From an uncultured Anaerolineales bacterium (lineage in GTDB: Bacteria > Chloroflexota > Anaerolineae > B4-G1 > SLSP01): a stretch of DNA of 11,573 nt. Numbering within the stretch: position 1 is the stretch's first letter; each line of letters starts with the position of its first letter. Location of the stretch: contig CAZCAI010000145.1 in NCBI GenBank assembly GCA_964496595.1, positions 1 through 11,573 of the forward strand, read 5' to 3'. Position numbers and translations under genes: made by a program. Shown here piece by piece: positions 1,243-11,573 of the stretch. The notes beneath the pieces were generated by a model. The model did not search any database. It was not told where the DNA came from and saw nothing but the letters and a program-made list of their open reading frames with translations.

Positions 1243-3498
1243 ATGGCTAAACAATCACAACCAATGCGGGATCAAGCGGATCAACAAATATCTCAGGGTC
1301 TGAATCAGCTCGAGGGCCGGGCGGCGCACACGATTGGGGAAGCGACGGCCACCTTAGAGATGTTGCGCACCAAGACGGATCGCGTCCGCGGGCTGATGGG
1401 GTTGTTCGGGTTTGGGCGGCGGATTTTGGTGCCGCCGGATGAAATTCACGTCGTCGTTGGCGACGGGCGGCATAGCCTGATCGCCTCTAAGCACAGTCAT
1501 GTCTTCGGTCAGACGGCGGATCGCGCGTCGATCTATTGGCTGAATCGGCTGACGCAGGTCATCAAGCTGAAGACCATCAGCTTTACCGTGCCCATTCGCG
1601 GCGCGGATGATGACGGCGTCCACGCCTTAGATAGCAGCAAGGTGAGCTTTAAGCTCTGGGCGCACGCCGTCGCCAAGCTGAACCCCGATAAAGCCGAAAT
1701 CGCCGCGCAGCGCGTCGGCTTGGACGCCACCAGCCTCATCAACACCATTACCGAGGTCGGCACGGCGGAGTTGGTCGCGGCCGGCGCGACGATGACCTTA
1801 GAGGAGATCATCGCCAACCACCAAAGGCTGGCCGAGATTGCCTTCCCGCAGGTCAACCAGATTCTCTCGGAACTGGGCTACGATCTGGCGCTGCTGACTA
1901 TCACCAAATTAGATGGCGTCGCCTATCGCAAGTTAGTCAATCAGGCCGAAGCTCGGATCTCCAAGGAGACCAGCATCGCCACCAACCGCGAGCAGGTCGC
2001 CGAGTTGCAGGATGACGAGGCGCGCCAGCGGCAGGAGGCCGAGATCAAGGCCGAGACGGAGAAGAAGTTAGCCGCCGAGCGGCTGGAGGCGGAGCGCGAG
2101 GTCGAGACCGCGACGCTCAATCAGCAGGAGAACTTGGCCGTCAAGCGGCACGAGGTGCAATTGCGCCACGTCTCGCGTGAGCAGGAGCAAGCGCGCGCGG
2201 GCCACGAAGTGGCGATGGAGAAGGTGGGGCTGGGGCGTCAGCAATCCGAGGCGGAGGTCGAGCGGGATGCTGAGTTGGAGCGCTTGAAGGCCGAGCGCCG
2301 GGCCGAGATCAATTTGGCCGAAACCGAGTCCGACGCGGATCGGTTGGCGCTAGAGCAGAAGCGTCAGATCGAGCGCGACGCGGAGCGGACGGAGGCGGAG
2401 GCCAGGCGCCTGCGCGAAGAAGAGTTGGCCGCCGCGCAGCGCGCCAAGGAGGTCGCGCTGGTGGAGGCGGAGCAGTTGGCCGAGTCGATGCGGATGGAGG
2501 CCGATGCCGAGACGAAAGCCGCGCTCGTCCGCGCCGAGGCAGAGACGAAGGCGGAGTTGATCCGCGCGGATGCGGAGGCGAACGCCACCGAGAAGCGCGC
2601 CAATGCGGCGAAGATCCGCGCCGAGGCGACGCGGGCCGAGACCGCCGCGCCGGGCCTGGCGGAGGCGGAGGTCGCAGCCGCGCGCGTCGAGGTCTCCGAG
2701 AAGCAGATCGCCGTCAACCGCGCCGAGGGTCTGGCCCAGGCCGAGGTCGCCAAGGCGCAGGCGGAAGCCGACGCCGACCGCGAGCGCCGGCTCAAAGAGG
2801 TCGAGATCGAGGCGCAGCGCCAACTGGTCGAACTCTATGACAAGGCGCCGGTCTTGGTAGAGATGGAGAAGCTCCGCATGCAGTACGAGCACGAGCGCGA
2901 ACTGACCCAAGTCCAGATGGAGACCTATCTCCAGGCATTCGAGGCGTTGGCGCCCAGCATGGAAGTGCGCATCTACGGCGGCGGGGATCAGACCACGCGC
3001 ATCATCACCGAGTTGATGCAACTCGCGCAGGGCGTGCGTTATCTGGGCGCGGAGGCGCCGGTGGTCGGGCGCATCTTAGAGGGCAAATCTGGGGTTCAAC
3101 AGCCGCTCTTCTCGCGGCTCTCTCATCTGGGGCCGTACTTCGAGGAGGCCGTGGCCGATATGAACCCGCGCATCTTCTCCAGCCTGCAGTTGGCCGACCT
3201 GATGGAGCGGCTGATGCCGGTCGTCGCCGGGCAGGAGGACATCGTCGCCGCGCTGAACCATCTCAAATCGGACGCGAGTTTCCGCGTGGTGGGCAACCTG
3301 CCCGTCGCGCCGCTCTTCCGCTTGTTGGGATTGGAGACGCCGCAATCTGGCCCCTCGGATATGATGATGGCCGGGGAAGAGGCGGCGAGCGAAGCCGAAG
3401 CAGAAGCCGAAGCAGAAGCCGAGGGCGAGGAAACAGCGGGTGAATCTGACATCGAGGCCTCGGAGGAAGCTGCCGGCCTCGATGCGCGGACGCCGTAA
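1243..3498 (+). CDS. Flotillin/SPFH (band 7) family protein of 751 aa. It has a very long Glu/Ala/Arg-rich coiled coil and an acidic EAEAEA tail, and no obvious N-terminal transmembrane hairpin.
   Basis: ATG at 1243 with GAGGAG at 1232-1237. The SPFH core is VPPDEIHVVVGDG...KLKTISFTVPIRGADDDGVHALDSSKVSFKLWAHAV...TMTLEEIIANHQRLAEIAFPQVNQILSELGYDLALLTITKLDG. It is followed by about 300 aa of EA/ER heptad-like repeats (the flotillin domain) and then the flotillin C-terminal-like MEVRIYGGGDQTTRIITELMQ. There is an extra tail of about 170 aa, including (GAAGCMGAAGCA)n at 3391-3423 encoding EAEAEAEAEAE. Confidence 0.8.
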   Translation: MAKQSQPMRDQADQQISQGLNQLEGRAAHTIGEATATLEMLRTKTDRVRGLMGLFGFGRRILVPPDEIHVVVGDGRHSLIASKHSHVFGQTADRASIYWLNRLTQVIKLKTISFTVPIRGADDDGVHALDSSKVSFKLWAHAVAKLNPDKAEIAAQRVGLDATSLINTITEVGTAELVAAGATMTLEEIIANHQRLAEIAFPQVNQILSELGYDLALLTITKLDGVAYRKLVNQAEARISKETSIATNREQVAELQDDEARQRQEAEIKAETEKKLAAERLEAEREVETATLNQQENLAVKRHEVQLRHVSREQEQARAGHEVAMEKVGLGRQQSEAEVERDAELERLKAERRAEINLAETESDADRLALEQKRQIERDAERTEAEARRLREEELAAAQRAKEVALVEAEQLAESMRMEADAETKAALVRAEAETKAELIRADAEANATEKRANAAKIRAEATRAETAAPGLAEAEVAAARVEVSEKQIAVNRAEGLAQAEVAKAQAEADADRERRLKEVEIEAQRQLVELYDKAPVLVEMEKLRMQYEHERELTQVQMETYLQAFEALAPSMEVRIYGGGDQTTRIITELMQLAQGVRYLGAEAPVVGRILEGKSGVQQPLFSRLSHLGPYFEEAVADMNPRIFSSLQLADLMERLMPVVAGQEDIVAALNHLKSDASFRVVGNLPVAPLFRLLGLETPQSGPSDMMMAGEEAASEAEAEAEAEAEGEETAGESDIEASEEAAGLDARTP
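3391..3423 (+). repeat. 12-nt tandem repeat gaagccgaagca x about 2.7, inside the flotillin 3' end. It encodes the EAEAEAEAEAE tail.
   Basis: Read directly. It is low-complexity coding sequence and prone to slippage. Confidence 0.8.
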
Positions 3499-3584: not shown

Positions 3585-3601
3585 GTTCGTAGTCAGGCAC
3601 G
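3585..3601. repeat. 17-bp direct repeat GTTCGTAGTCAGGCACG, copy 1 of 2, lying 31 nt upstream of the mobB start.
   Basis: It is identical to 4123-4139. Read directly. Confidence 0.9.
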
Positions 3602-3631
3602 CAATGGAATGGAGTGCCGTAGGAGGATTGG

Positions 3632-4150
3632 ATGTCCGATAATGAGATTCCCATCGTCGCCTTTGTGGGGCGCTCCGGCGCGGGGAAGACGACGCTGTTG
3701 GAGCGCGTGATCGCCGCCTTAGATGTGCGCGGCGTTCGCGTGGCCGTCGTCAAGCACACGCACCACACCGGCCTGGCGACCGATCTGCCCGGCACGGACT
3801 CGCGGCGGCTGTGGGAGGCCGGCGCGCAGCACACGACGCTCTGGGCGCCGGATCGCGTCGCGCACACGCATCGCACCGCGTCGCCGCCGACGCTGGCGAC
3901 GGTCTTGCGCGACATCCACGACGTCGATGTGATCCTGATCGAAGGGGATAAGCACGGCGCACTCCCCAAGATTGAGGTCGTGCGTGCGGCTGTTGATCTC
4001 GCGCTGCTGGATATCGAAGGGCGCATCGCGTGCGTCACGGACGCGCCAGACTTAGCGTGGGAGGGCCCGCGCTTCGGCTTCGATGACGCGGGCGTCGCGG
4101 CGCTGGCCGATTTTATCCACAAGTTCGTAGTCAGGCACGAAACGAAGTGA
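3632..4150 (+). CDS. mobB: MobB-like P-loop GTPase (molybdopterin-guanine dinucleotide biosynthesis protein B family).
   Basis: ATG at 3632 with AGGAGG at 3621-3626. IPIVAFVGRSGAGKTTLLERVIAAL...VAVVKHTHH...DVILIEGDKHGALPKIEV closely parallels E. coli MobB (AIAAWSGTGKTTLLKKLIPAL...GLIKHTHH...LILVEGFKHEEIAKIVL). Confidence 0.85.
   Translation: MSDNEIPIVAFVGRSGAGKTTLLERVIAALDVRGVRVAVVKHTHHTGLATDLPGTDSRRLWEAGAQHTTLWAPDRVAHTHRTASPPTLATVLRDIHDVDVILIEGDKHGALPKIEVVRAAVDLALLDIEGRIACVTDAPDLAWEGPRFGFDDAGVAALADFIHKFVVRHETK
4123..4139. repeat. 17-bp direct repeat GTTCGTAGTCAGGCACG, copy 2 of 2, inside the last codons of mobB (encoding KFVVRHE).
   Basis: It is identical to 3585-3601. Read directly. Confidence 0.9.
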
Positions 4151-4589: not shown

Positions 4590-4610
4590 GGTCGGGATGC
4601 CATCCCGACC
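4590..4610 (+). promoter_or_regulatory. Perfect 21-nt palindrome GGTCGGGATGcCATCCCGACC between archease and rtcB, with no following T-tract. Candidate operator or RNA stem-loop.
   Basis: Read directly. The arms are 10/10 complementary, centred on 4600, and the palindrome ends 14 nt upstream of the rtcB AGGAGG. Confidence 0.4.
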
Positions 4611-4635
4611 CAGGAGCTATTCAAAGGAGGGCGCG

Positions 4636-6087
4636 ATGGTACAAAAGAACCAGTTTAAGCAAATCGATGAGTACACGTGGGAGTTGCACAAGAACTATGA
4701 CAGCCGGATGCGGGCGCCGGTGCGCATTTACGGCAACCGCGAAATTTTCGATCAGGCCTTTGGGGATCACTCGATCCAGCAATTGATTAACGTCTCGATG
4801 TTGCCGGGGATTGTGAAGTACGCGATGGCGATGCCCGACATGCACCAGGGCTACGGCTTCCCGATTGGGGGCGTCGCGGCGTTCGATTATGACGAGGGGA
4901 TTATCTCGCCTGGCGGCGTTGGATATGATATCAACTGCGGCGTGCGCATGCTGGCCTCGAACATCGAGTTCGAGGAGATCAAGCCGCACTTGAACGACCT
5001 GACGACGATGCTCTACCAGAACTGCCCCAGCGGTCTGGGCGGCGATGGCGCGGTGCAAGTCTCGACGGCCGAGATGGACGAGTTGCTGGAGGATGGCTCG
5101 GAGTGGGCGCGCCATCAGGGCTACGCCACCCGCGATGATCGGGCCCGGACGGAGGGTGGGGGGCGGCTGCCCGGCGCTCGCGCCGACGCGGTACCCTATC
5201 GCGCCAGGCAGCGGGGATTGTCCCAGGTCGGATCGCTCGGCTCCGGCAACCACTTCCTGGAGATCGACGTGATCGACGCTGTCTACGACGAGGAGGTCGC
5301 GGCGGTCTTCGGCCTGACGGCGGGCCAGATTGTGGTGCAAATTCACTGCGGCTCGCGTGGGTTGGGCCACGAGGTCTGCTCGCAATACCTGCGTCGCTTG
5401 CAAGATGCCCCGCGCCGTTACGACATCCCCATCCCCGACCGTGAACTCGTCGCCGCGCCCATCGAATCTGAAGAGGGCCAGGCGTACTTCGCCGCGATGG
5501 CGGCGGCCGCGAACTACGCCTTCGTCAACCGGCAGGTGCTGGCCCACTTTGCGCGTCGCACCTTCGAGCAGGTGCTGGCCGGCAAGGTCAGCGATTGGCA
5601 TCTCCAGCAGGTCTACGATGTGACCCACAATATAGCCAAGATCGAGGAGCATCAGGTGGGATCGGTGCGAAAGAAGCTGATCGTTCACCGCAAGGGCGCG
5701 ACGCGTGCCTTCCCGCCCGGCCACCCGGAGCTTTCGGAGGTCTATCAGCCGACGGGGCAGCCGGTTCTCGTGCCCGGCTCGATGGGGACGGCCTCCTACG
5801 TGCTCGTGGGCACGCAGTCGGCGATGGAGCGCACCTTCGGATCGAGCTGTCACGGCGCCGGTCGAACGATGAGCCGGCGGCAGGCAAAGAAGAAGACGCG
5901 CGGGGAGCAGGTGCGTCAGGAGCTAAATCAGGAGGGGATCACGGTACGGGCCGGCAGCATGCGTGGCCTGGCGGAGGAGTCGCCCGTCGCCTACAAGGAT
6001 GTGGACGTGGTGGTGGATTCCGTCGTCGGCGCGGGGATCGCCCGCAAAGTCGCCCGCGTGCATCCCGTGGCGGTGATCAAGGGGTGA
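4636..6087 (+). CDS. rtcB: RNA-splicing ligase RtcB (3'-phosphate/5'-OH RNA ligase).
   Basis: I prefer ATG 4636 (AGGAGG at 4625-4630) over the longer 4597 start in the ORF track. Conserved RtcB blocks are present: MPDMHQGYGFPIGGV, GYDINCGVR (the Asp/Cys metal ligands), GSLGSGNHFLE, IHCGSRGLGHEV, NYAFVNRQ, THNIAKIEEH and SCHGAGRTMSR. Confidence 0.9.
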   Translation: MVQKNQFKQIDEYTWELHKNYDSRMRAPVRIYGNREIFDQAFGDHSIQQLINVSMLPGIVKYAMAMPDMHQGYGFPIGGVAAFDYDEGIISPGGVGYDINCGVRMLASNIEFEEIKPHLNDLTTMLYQNCPSGLGGDGAVQVSTAEMDELLEDGSEWARHQGYATRDDRARTEGGGRLPGARADAVPYRARQRGLSQVGSLGSGNHFLEIDVIDAVYDEEVAAVFGLTAGQIVVQIHCGSRGLGHEVCSQYLRRLQDAPRRYDIPIPDRELVAAPIESEEGQAYFAAMAAAANYAFVNRQVLAHFARRTFEQVLAGKVSDWHLQQVYDVTHNIAKIEEHQVGSVRKKLIVHRKGATRAFPPGHPELSEVYQPTGQPVLVPGSMGTASYVLVGTQSAMERTFGSSCHGAGRTMSRRQAKKKTRGEQVRQELNQEGITVRAGSMRGLAEESPVAYKDVDVVVDSVVGAGIARKVARVHPVAVIKG

Positions 6088-6191
6088 GCAGTTCGGTTTG
6101 TAGTTAGCCTCGAAGCGGAAGCGGAGTGGCGTTTTTCAGCGCTTCATTTCATTTGGCATTCCATTGCGCGGCGGATGCCTTGCTACGAAAA

Positions 6192-6251
6192 GGGGAATTG
6201 AGTGAAAGATTGCGGATGAATTTGGCTTGGGGGCGAGGACTAAGGCCTCTG
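6192..6251. repeat. Copy A of a repeated 46-60 nt element (GGGGAATTGAGTGAAAGAT...GGGGGCGAGGACTAAGGCCTCTG). It is the 5' part of a densely structured GC-rich non-coding block (6192-6370).
   Basis: Matches 11528-11573: GGGGAATTG(a/g)GTGAAAGAT, then an indel (A has an extra roughly 16 nt), then GGGGGCGAGGACTAA(a)GGCCTCTG. Downstream hairpins are CCTTCCTT-ctgc-AAGGAAGG (6271-6290), GGCGC-gtta-GCGCC and CGCGCC...GGCGCG. The strand of any transcript is unknown. Confidence 0.7.
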
Positions 6252-6372
6252 GCCAGGCCCTGTCGGCCAACCTTCCTTCTGCAAGGAAGGCTCCCGCGCC
6301 CGCGTAGGCGGTCGCCTGGCGCGTTAGCGCCTGTCTCAGGACTTCAGTCCAGGATAAACTACCAGGCTTAGT

Positions 6373-6414
6373 AAAAAAGCCAGGAGCCGAGGTTATTATG
6401 ACCTCGGCTCCTGG
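6373..6414 (-). terminator. Rho-independent terminator of the minus-strand slyD-csp operon. The hairpin could also act bidirectionally.
   Basis: Perfect 14-bp stem (6380-6393 with 6401-6414) and a 7-nt loop. A6 at 6373-6378 on the plus strand gives U6 right after the stem on the minus strand. It lies 18 nt after the csp stop. Confidence 0.8.
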
Positions 6415-6431
6415 TCTAAATCAGGGATTGC

Positions 6432-6728
6432 CTACACAAAATTGTCGAATGAGAAGCCGGATGGGTTGGGCTCCTGGGTGCTGTCTTCTTCTTCTTCTTC
6501 TTCCCTTTCGCCGCGCTCTTTGCTGACCACCTCGGTGGCCTTGGGGCCGCGATCGGTCATCTCGATTTTGAACTCGACCTTTTCCCCGTCGTGAAGGGTA
6601 CGGAATCCTGAGCCTGCGATGTTGGAATAATGCACGAAGACATCATCCTCGCCATCCTCCCGCTCAATAAAACCAAACCCCTTCTTCTCATCGAACCATT
6701 TGACTGTACCGTTTAGACTGTCTTCCAT
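6432..6728 (-). CDS. Cold-shock protein (CspA family, cold-shock domain) with an unusual acidic C-terminal extension of about 30 aa.
   Basis: [15 protein letters not shown] (RNP1-like), VFVHYSNI (RNP2-like) and [20 protein letters not shown] form a classic CSD. The tail [28 protein letters not shown] is encoded partly by (CTT)6 at 6485-6502. A GGAGG RBS precedes the ATG at 6728. Confidence 0.9.
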
Positions 6729-10007: not shown

Positions 10008-11423
10008 ATGAAAGCTGAACGCGCGACCCGCCTTTTCATCTTCCTGCTGATCCTGACCGACATGGCGATGGCCGGGTTGGCCTTCGCGGCGGCTTATCTG
10101 CTGCGGCAAGCCATCCCCGTGCCCGATGTGGCCGAGGGTCTGCGTCCCTGGGGCGAATACGTGCCGATGATGGGCATCCACATCTTCTCCCTGGTGGGCG
10201 TCTTCTTCTTCGCGCGGCTCTATAACCTCTCGCGCGCCTCGCGCATCGACGAGTTCTACGACATCGTGGCCGCCGCGACCATCGGCACGCTGATGGGCGT
10301 GGCGCTTGCCTCCTTGACCCTCCGAGACTTCGTCGTCGGGCGGGATTATTCGCGGGCGATGGTACTCTATGCATGGGCGCTCTCCATCCTGCTGGTGACG
10401 CTGGGCCGCTTGCTCAACGATTGGCTGCGCAAATACTGGGTTCGGCGCGGTTGGGGCCGGCGCCGCCTGCTCATTATCGGGATGGGCGACGTGGCGCGGA
10501 TGATCCTCCAGAAGATTCTCTGGACCCCAGAGCTGGGCTACGACGCTGTCGGCGTGGTGACGCTGCACGAGGTGGCCCAATCGTCGCTGTTGAATGTGCC
10601 GGTCGTGGGCACGGCGGACGCGCTGCGGCAGCTCATTGCTGAGCACGAGATCGACGAGGTCATCATCGCGCTGCCGGAGGACACTTCTCACAATGAGATC
10701 CTCTGGCTGATCTCCGAATGCGAGCGCGGGCGCGTGACTATTCGCGTCTACCCCGACCTCTTCCAGATCATGGCCGGGCCGGTGAGCATCGGCGAGATGG
10801 GCGGCATTCCCATCCTCACCGTGCGCGATATCGCGCTGACGGGCTGGCGGCGCCTGGCCAAGCGCGCGATGGATATGGCGGGCGCGATGGTGGGCCTGGT
10901 CTTCTTCTCTCCGATGATGATGATGATCGCCCTGTTGATCAAGCTGGAATCGCCGGGGCCGGTCTTCTTCATCCAGGAGCGGATGGGGCTGGACGCGCGC
11001 CCGTTCCCCATCCTCAAATTCCGCTCGATGCGCGAGGATGCGGAGAAGAGCGGGCCGGGATGGACGACTGAGGACGATCCCCGGCGGACGAAAATCGGCG
11101 CGTTCCTGCGGGAGACTAACTTAGATGAGCTGCCTCAATTCATCAACGTGCTGCTGGGATATATGAGCCTGGTTGGCCCGCGCCCGGAGCGCCCCGTCTA
11201 CGTGGAGCAATTCCGCCGCAGCATCCCCCGCTATATGGATCGCCACCGCGAGAAGGCGGGGATGACGGGCTGGGCGCAGATCAACGGCTATCGCGGTGAC
11301 ACCTCGATCATCGAGCGCACGAAGTATGACCTCTGGTATATCGAGAACTGGTCGCTGCTGTTAGATGTCAAAATCATGATTCGGACGCTGTTGCAATTCT
11401 TCCGATCACCGAATGCGTATTGA
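10008..11423 (+). CDS. Polyprenyl-phosphate sugar phosphotransferase (bacterial sugar transferase, WbaP/WcaJ/EpsL family): the priming enzyme of polysaccharide biosynthesis.
   Basis: An N-terminal set of 4-5 hydrophobic segments is followed by a central Rossmann-like region (RRLLIIGMGDVAR...VIIALPE). The C-terminal catalytic domain has the family hallmarks KFRSM..DAE, DELPQFINVLLG.MSLVGPRPERP, GMTGWAQINGYRG and DLWYIENWSLLLDVKI. Confidence 0.9.
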   Translation: MKAERATRLFIFLLILTDMAMAGLAFAAAYLLRQAIPVPDVAEGLRPWGEYVPMMGIHIFSLVGVFFFARLYNLSRASRIDEFYDIVAAATIGTLMGVALASLTLRDFVVGRDYSRAMVLYAWALSILLVTLGRLLNDWLRKYWVRRGWGRRRLLIIGMGDVARMILQKILWTPELGYDAVGVVTLHEVAQSSLLNVPVVGTADALRQLIAEHEIDEVIIALPEDTSHNEILWLISECERGRVTIRVYPDLFQIMAGPVSIGEMGGIPILTVRDIALTGWRRLAKRAMDMAGAMVGLVFFSPMMMMIALLIKLESPGPVFFIQERMGLDARPFPILKFRSMREDAEKSGPGWTTEDDPRRTKIGAFLRETNLDELPQFINVLLGYMSLVGPRPERPVYVEQFRRSIPRYMDRHREKAGMTGWAQINGYRGDTSIIERTKYDLWYIENWSLLLDVKIMIRTLLQFFRSPNAY

Positions 11424-11527
11424 CGAGTATTTCGTATCGCGTATTCCGTAAAAATTTTTGTAAGAATGACAGGTGGTAGTCGAGCAGTACTTTCCCGTCG
11501 GATAGTTCATTACGCAATGGCTCATGT

Positions 11528-11573
11528 GGGGAATTGGGTGAAAGATGAGGGGGGCGAGGACTAAAGGCCTCTG
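11528..11573. repeat. Copy B of the repeated element (GGGGAATTGGGTGAAAGAT-GA-GGGGGGCGAGGACTAAAGGCCTCTG), truncated by the window end.
   Basis: It aligns to 6192-6251 with 2 substitutions, a single inserted A, and a roughly 16-nt deletion relative to copy A. It sits 105 nt downstream of the sugar transferase stop. Confidence 0.7.

Follow-up and report, generated by a model that had tools for sequence, protein, structure and literature searches.

A candidate family of MITE-like foldback elements with a multi-hairpin core in intergenic spacers of uncultured Anaerolineales

A hairpin-dense repeat in the intergenic DNA of an uncultured Anaerolineales bacterium belongs, with a probability that we put at about 0.6, to a new family of non-coding, non-autonomous, MITE-like foldback elements carried by a narrow group of uncultured Anaerolineales. 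The window (the whole stretch of 11,573 nucleotides that was analyzed) holds two copies. The shared unit would have three parts: block 1, which is a subterminal motif of the GGGGA type; a short linker; and a 114-nt core in which, as RNA or single-stranded DNA, a closing helix is predicted to enclose four short hairpins rich in GC. Copy A appears to lie in the rtcB-csp spacer, inside an insertion of ~260 bp (6108-6367) flanked by two TTAG tetranucleotides, and copy B in the spacer after a sugar-transferase gene, where it would have broken the assembly. A transposase encoded elsewhere would move the element, the orientation of the core relative to the outer ends could flip, and any effect on the host may be incidental, for example through a stable structure in read-through transcripts beside terminators. 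The first-pass annotation had offered three options, these being a small structured RNA family, a miniature (REP- or MITE-like) repeat that targets gene 3' ends, and a conserved 3'UTR element; the MITE-like option is the best supported, by presence and absence at both sites, by an insertion in a related locus (L040), and by the target-site duplication and terminal inverted repeats found there.

The window encodes, in order, a SpoIIE-type phosphatase, a 751-aa protein, MobB, archease, and RtcB (4597-6087, plus strand), which a 344-nt spacer separates from csp; the csp, FKBP, and aminotransferase genes are all on the minus strand, and a GT2 glycosyltransferase and then a Bac_transf sugar transferase (10008-11423), both on the plus strand, come last. 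The 751-aa open reading frame (1243-3498) has no Pfam hit and contains coiled-coil-like internal repeats with a 33-nt period at 2500-2586; it is missing from L013 and present in L031, L032, and L017, where precomputed annotation assigns it to Band_7. The csp product (6432-6728, minus strand) is 98 aa long and carries an acidic C-terminal tail (REEEEEED...) after its CSD domain, and the L023 homologue has 72 aa.

The sequence GGGGAATTGRGTGAAAGAT is found only at 6192-6210 and 11528-11546 (18/19 bases identical), with none expected from 200 shuffles of the window, and GGGGGCGAGGACTAA(A)GGCCTCTG is found at 6229-6251 and 11550-11573, where 23/24 bases are identical (95.8% over 24 nt by blastn). 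The repeat at 6192 and 11528-11573 that had been picked out by eye is therefore present and beyond chance, but its description as having three point differences and one indel was an understatement: the two blocks are separated by 18 nt in copy A (6211-6228) and by 3 nt in copy B (11547-11549), a length difference of 15 nt that the ellipsis in that description concealed. Copy B is incomplete because the window is an entire MAG contig, which stops inside it, at 11573. Two copies occur on this one 11.5-kb contig and assembly breaks at both, independent Logan contigs from the same sample also ending within both copies, as expected of a repeat; the element explains the contig breaks at these points in this organism. 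The contig start lies in repetitive DNA as well, since positions 1-53 repeat the heptamer AACTTGT in tandem (7.6 copies). Each copy begins 105 nt past a stop codon (6087 and 11423), so that the spacing of about 105 nt past a plus-strand stop noted earlier is exact. The two 104-nt stretches between stop codon and repeat are, however, no more alike than shuffled sequence, and because they are unrelated we regard the equal spacing as a coincidence.

Within copy A, the TTAG at 6104-6107 may be the left copy of a 4-bp target-site duplication, a reading that is only suggestive in the window; this TTAG may be native sequence, and the left junction has no exact empty-site match. The outer 5' part of the insertion (84 nt; 6108-6191, plus strand) has no counterpart in the other copies or in the spacers of relatives. 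A 27-nt repeat, GTTCGTAGTCAGGCACG.AA.G.A.TG, occurs at 3585-3611 and 4123-4149, near the ends of two genes, and an inverted partial copy of it, matching 3593-3611, lies at 6157-6190 inside this outer part. Block 1 (GGGGAATTGAGTGAAAGAT; 6192-6210, plus strand) is the subterminal motif common to copies A and B (11528-11546 in copy B, plus strand), and is followed by the linker TGCGGATGAATTTGGCTT (6211-6228, plus strand), which the alignments place in copy A, diverged in L002 and deleted in copy B. Copy A, copy B, and L002 all retain the G-run leader GGGGGCGA (6229-6236, plus strand). The 114-nt core (6237-6350, plus strand) comprises the closing helix P1 and hairpins H1-H4. In copy B, the contig end cuts the element after the G-run and 16 nt of core (11550-11573, plus strand), a segment that is 100% identical to L002 2511-2535. 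The 3' end of insertion A, AGGATAAACTACCAGGC (6351-6367, plus strand), carries the terminal motif AACTACC, as at the L040 element end, and the TTAG at 6368-6371, possibly the right copy of the duplication, matches the TTAG at the L040/L013 junction. Outside the element, the hairpin at 6380-6414 (minus strand), which aligns to L013, L031, and L040, is the csp intrinsic terminator because it has a T-run on the minus strand, as had been proposed.

The block is non-coding, as the first reading of it had held. The 81-aa open reading frame over it has no Pfam match and no hit among 1.84 billion representative proteins, a chimeric profile of the three open frames found nothing in 5.8 billion clusters, and the frame is shifted between copies by single-base indels. 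Nor does it belong to a known RNA family: at the gathering threshold, Rfam 15 gave no hits in the window, L002, L013, L014, or L015 except one tRNA, permissive Rfam searches over three copies gave only chance-level hits, and ARAGORN reported nothing in the window (no tRNA and no tmRNA). The Rfam search proposed at the outset thus yielded no family match at either stringency, the Y RNA-like and Chloroflexi-1 families included, and with the ARAGORN result it upholds the earlier exclusion of tmRNA, SRP RNA, RNase P, and 6S RNA. A type I toxin-antitoxin system, a CsrB-like sponge, a Y RNA, and a riboswitch were also considered and rejected. For annotation, the 81-aa open reading frame should not be called, and the hairpin block should be entered as a repeat or mobile insertion and not as an rtcB-linked RNA.

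Across 185,579 species genomes, with each species represented by one genome, a search for an exact 20-mer returned a single hit, in the Anaerolineales MAG L002, whose core is ~90% identical to that of copy A and whose flanks and neighboring genes, an ABC transporter operon and a histidine kinase gene both on the other strand, are unrelated. Relatives sampled through RtcB and sugar-transferase homologues gave two further copies, one in L015 (1681-1798, minus strand; ~69-70% identical to the window core), where an RpiR-like gene and tRNA-Val are 1.1 kb apart, and one in L040 (core at 2962-3053, minus strand). These three copies each have a different gene context and lie in either orientation. 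A covariance model built from H1-H4 (R1) recovers the core in L002, L015, and L040; nhmmer and the covariance model detected nothing beyond the known copies in ~245 kb of related DNA, which contains five in all, and these model searches gave no family score anywhere in L016-L023, L035, L038, or L039. Two metagenome scans gave 0 hits and then 9 chance hits, viral scans gave 0 hits and then chance hits, and blastn against plasmids and phages gave nothing. We note several features around the outlying copies. The L002 copy is followed by five or six GCTTTG motifs with ~8-nt spacing (2675-2730) and then by a long hairpin with a T-run (2739-2805). In L015, the 3' strand of P1 can alternatively pair downstream over 9 bp (CCGTAGGTC/GACCTACGG; 1665-1686 with 1512-1529, minus strand), and an intrinsic terminator stands directly before the ribosome-binding site of the RpiR-like gene, a switch-like layout that is not conserved in the other copies.

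The comparison of filled and empty sites shows that gain or loss of the element happens over short evolutionary distances. The flanking genes of L013, L031, and L032 align to the window at 85-92%, and the alignment ends at 6088 and restarts at 6374, with 6089-6373 unalignable; their rtcB-csp spacer is 192 nt long and contains a different palindromic element. In L023 the same spacer is only 75 nt, and the element is absent from the rtcB-csp spacer in all four of these close relatives. In L016-L021 an aminotransferase gene directly follows rtcB. At the second site, relatives continue from the sugar transferase to a methyltransferase across 81-430 nt, and the core is absent from the post-Bac_transf spacer in L014, L015, L033, L034, L036, L037, and L040 (spacers read or aligned).

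These observations contradict the proposal of a conserved 3'UTR element, because the synteny comparison shows that relatives whose flanking genes are 86-92% identical in nucleotide sequence lack it after rtcB. This explanation would make the element a conserved cis-acting regulator of rtcB, such as a Y-RNA-like partner of RNA-repair genes or a riboswitch-like leader. The position of copy A, 105 nt after rtcB and in the same orientation, speaks for it, as does the alternative downstream pairing of the P1 3' strand in L015 (CCGUAGGUC/GACCUACGG) with a terminator preceding the next gene. However, the element is missing after rtcB in L013, L031, L032, L023, and L016-L021, the L040 copy runs on the opposite strand, unrelated genes flank the other copies, there is no Rfam match, no Ro/Rsr gene was found, and the alternative pairing of L015 is not conserved in other copies. 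We consider a conserved rtcB element extremely improbable.

L040, whose genes are arranged as in the window, provides a clear insertion: its copy also occupies the rtcB-csp spacer, but on the opposite strand. The filled site reads GGCGGG-TTAG-[222 bp]-TTAG-ATATAT, and the empty site in L013 and L031 reads GGCGGG-TTAG-ATATAG, with a single TTAG; in L040, 222 bp have been inserted cleanly and the 4-bp TTAG has been duplicated. The L040 copy is bounded by imperfect terminal inverted repeats of ~28 nt (GGTAGTTCCAGAAATTACCCCCAAAC versus GGCCGTTCCAAGAAAATAAGTCTCCCAAAAAC). L015 has an inner inverted repeat, GGGGATGGTTCA/TGAACCATCCC, whose motif is also present in L040, and a 3' arm is common to L015 and L040. 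Judged by eye from the sequences, block 1 probably corresponds to this GGGGATGGTTCA motif; it lies 26 nt from the core in the window, and GGGGATGGTTCA lies 30 nt from the core in L015. CTAA is found on both sides of L002 2476-2667. Overall, the element measures 222-281 bp.

The window agrees with L040 at one end. Window 6357-6430 aligns to L040 3086-3159 at 85%, ~17 nt further into the element than the empty-site alignments, which start at 6374, and the element end (AACTACC...TTAG) is in the same place beside the csp terminator in both. The two TTAG tetranucleotides, 6104-6107 and 6368-6371, bracket 260 nt (6108-6367). The terminal repeats of copy A, CCTCGAAG... versus GCCTGGTAG..., match at ~6-7 of 10-11 positions, so that inverted repeats, terminal in L040 and inner in L015, are present in the family but weak in copy A. 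Relative to the shared end, moreover, the window core is inverted and lies 6 nt from that end, versus 45 nt in L040. Because its outer parts differ and its core is inverted and nearer the shared end, copy A is rearranged and not a simple intact MITE; the window copies are rearranged or mosaic, and their core may be invertible between arms or may be a nested module. The orientation of the element relative to neighboring genes is not fixed, and the suggestion that it targets gene 3' ends is unsupported in the form proposed, the L002 and L015 copies not being downstream of a co-oriented gene and the L040 copy lying on the other strand. No copy-bearing locus contains a transposase gene or an autonomous element with matching ends.

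Other small repeats share these spacers. A second palindromic family, with perfect 15-19-nt inverted ends (ACCTTCCGGGAAGCTGCAA ... AGCTTCCCGGAAGGT) around ~60 variable nt, fills the rtcB-csp spacer of the relatives (L013 11476-11574, the same place in L031 and L032, and L040 2758-2862), occurs at L002 5590-5683 (minus strand), and is absent from the window; its GGAAGGT ends resemble IS5-type terminal repeats. Just after the sugar-transferase stop, all relatives have a long inverted repeat of heptamer-periodic motifs (GTATTNC, with TACGCAA in the other arm), at 11424-11452 and 11509-11519 in the window and at 2682-2790 in L014. Its right arm is shortened in the window, at the start of copy B, and the same kind of heptamer motif lies upstream of the L002 copy (2320-2360). 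At the place orthologous to copy B, L033 11560-11640 reads CCACTTGG CCACTTGG GTCAAAGATG and then has a GC hairpin, GCCGCCCTTCGGCGGC. This 62-nt stretch, which L014, L034, and L036 lack, includes a 13/14 match to block 1. This block-1-like 14-mer without a core may be the relic of an old insertion, or native sequence. The 14-mer had led us to consider block 1 a native flank at site B, a view set aside in favor of a putative subterminal motif homologous to GGGGATGGTTCA.

The core has a detailed architecture. The closing helix P1 pairs 6237-6253 with 6332-6350 and encloses H1 (GGCC/GGCC, 6256-6268), H2 (CCTTCCTT/AAGGAAGG, 6271-6290), H3 (GCGCCCGC/GCGGTCGC, 6296-6315), which covaries, and H4 (GGCGC/GCGCC, 6318-6331), which is conserved. 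Where copy A and L002 have these versions of H2 and H3, L015 and L040 have CCGTCTGC/GCAGACGG as H2 and GCATCC(T/G)C/G(A/C)GGATGC as H3, and in L015 P1 changes from GGACU/AGUCC to CUACGGGCG/CGUCCGUAG with pairing kept. In the four-sequence alignment, pairing is kept in 96% of cells, versus 39-45% with slid partners, and changes on both sides with pairing kept affect 6 pairs (9 cells) in two hairpins. The fold z-scores of the core range from -3.2 to -7.0. The hairpins listed in the first-pass annotation fared variously: CCTTCCTT/AAGGAAGG and GGCGC/GCGCC are real and conserved, whereas CGCGCC/GGCGCG, which is incompatible with H3 and H4 and loses its complementarity in L015, and CCTG/CAGG, which overlaps H4 and P1, are unsupported; the covarying GCGCCCGC/GCGGTCGC hairpin had been missed. 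Two other folds were rejected. A rod in which the H1 and H4 regions pair together, as in the minimum-free-energy structures of L002 and L015, is disfavored because every difference in those regions, in copy A for H1 and in L015 and L040 for H4, sits in a local hairpin loop and would disrupt the rod pairing. A local GGAC-UUCA-GUCC hairpin is removed by a 3-nt deletion in L015, and because it cannot form there the long-range helix P1 is preferred.

In the H3 loop, L015 has GAAG where L040 has the reverse complement, CUUC, and a loop flip of this kind is typical of DNA palindromes. Such a flip suggests DNA-level hairpin dynamics, which could give apparent compensatory changes without selection on RNA. 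Under the MITE-like interpretation, what keeps the hairpins would be either selection on the strand in its folded form or hairpin-templated correction. The strand cues are mixed: two pairs extending the base of H2 form on the antisense strand only, the G-U pairs of P1 form on the sense strand only, tallies of G-U versus A-C positions point both ways, and promoter-like and terminator-like sites in L015 and L002 favor the strand as written.

An alternative is that the copies are a family of small structured RNA genes, encoding a trans-acting sRNA or protein-binding RNA, duplicating, and moving among intergenic spacers, with the core as the functional RNA. Compensatory changes that keep helix lengths and tetraloops over ~30% divergence are in keeping with this, and L015 has a good sigma-70-like promoter (TTGACT-17-TAAAAT with TG) ~60 nt upstream on the sense strand of the core and an intrinsic terminator downstream; strong hairpins also follow L002 and copy A on the sense strand, and neither L002 nor L015 has a co-oriented upstream gene. 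Nevertheless, the promoter search found no conserved or shared promoter upstream of copy A, copy B, or L002, the strand cues contradict one another, the L040 site shows a clean insertion, complete with target duplication and terminal inverted repeats, and most close relatives have no element. We regard independent RNA genes as unlikely, if a genuine contender. A reading intermediate in kind joins the two: the 114-nt core may function as an RNA module, for instance as an sRNA, a protein-binding scaffold, or a guide-like RNA, inside, or captured by, a mobile foldback element in which it could flip. A detailed hairpin architecture maintained over ~30% sequence divergence exceeds the needs of a transposase and fits a functional RNA as well, and a captured module would explain helices kept by compensatory change far beyond what transposition needs. 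To this we attach a small probability, and return to the MITE-like element as the preferred reading.

Several kinds of mobile or recombining hairpin invite comparison. An integron attC site is a single imperfect palindrome bounded by RYYYAAC and GTTRRRY core sites and found downstream of cassette open reading frames. It was rejected here, where the sole GTT-containing candidate, GTTAGCG, misfits GTTRRRY and the neighbors are syntenic housekeeping genes, not cassettes. REP and REPIN sequences repeat one short palindrome, usually as inverted pairs, in genomes that carry a RAYT gene, and insertion of the IS200/IS605 type makes no target duplication. A hairpin element mobilized as single-stranded DNA by a Y1/HUH transposase, of REP/REPIN-RAYT or IS200/IS605 derivation and with the hairpins as recognition structures, would accord with several short GC-rich hairpins kept by compensatory change, with a hairpin loop flipped between copies, and with a location beside terminators in intergenic spacers. 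The L040 insertion, however, duplicates 4 bp, the four hairpins are mutually different and not one repeated palindrome, and no RAYT or TnpA gene is present on any copy-bearing locus, and we consider this origin highly unlikely. The REP, BIME, and REPIN elements mobilized by RAYT transposases (PMC3116915) are alike in being GC-rich extragenic palindromes with a hairpin kept by compensatory change and with mosaic modules; they differ from this element in its four dissimilar hairpins within one unit, its target duplication in L040, and the lack of any RAYT seen on copy-bearing loci.

IS5-family elements and their MITEs make a 4-bp duplication at YTAR-type targets. The TTAG/CTAA duplication at an A/T-rich target resembles theirs and is a lead only; the element ends (GGTAGTTCC... 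and GGGGATGGTTCA) do not match what we take to be the IS5 terminal repeat, and no IS5-type transposase was found nearby. The ERIC sequences of enterobacteria, imperfect palindromes of ~127 bp that are listed as MITEs (PMC3184786), resemble the element in core size, in being imperfect palindromes, and in a location that differs among related genomes; ERIC can be co-transcribed with neighboring genes and has terminal repeats and TA-containing flanks. They come from another phylum, are unrelated in sequence, and form a single long hairpin, in contrast to the four internal hairpins of this core.

The closest fit is to the bacterial MITEs reviewed in PMC3184786, among them Correia/NEMIS, RUP, Nezha, and Chunjie, with whose definitions we compared the features found here; the likeness is one of features. 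Like them, the element is under 300 bp, non-coding, and intergenic, near gene 3' ends and terminators; it has terminal inverted repeats and a short target duplication (in L040), a long stem-loop fold, and a presence that varies between close relatives. Unlike them, it appears to have a low copy number in the DNA sampled, and its center is a conserved multi-hairpin junction with compensatory changes and not a simple rod. The element thus adds a MITE-like family to the Anaerolineales, a little-studied and mostly uncultured group in which the intergenic spacers seem to contain several families of small palindromic repeats, and its multi-hairpin core, a modest candidate for function at the RNA level, is the sole part that is perhaps worth experimental work.
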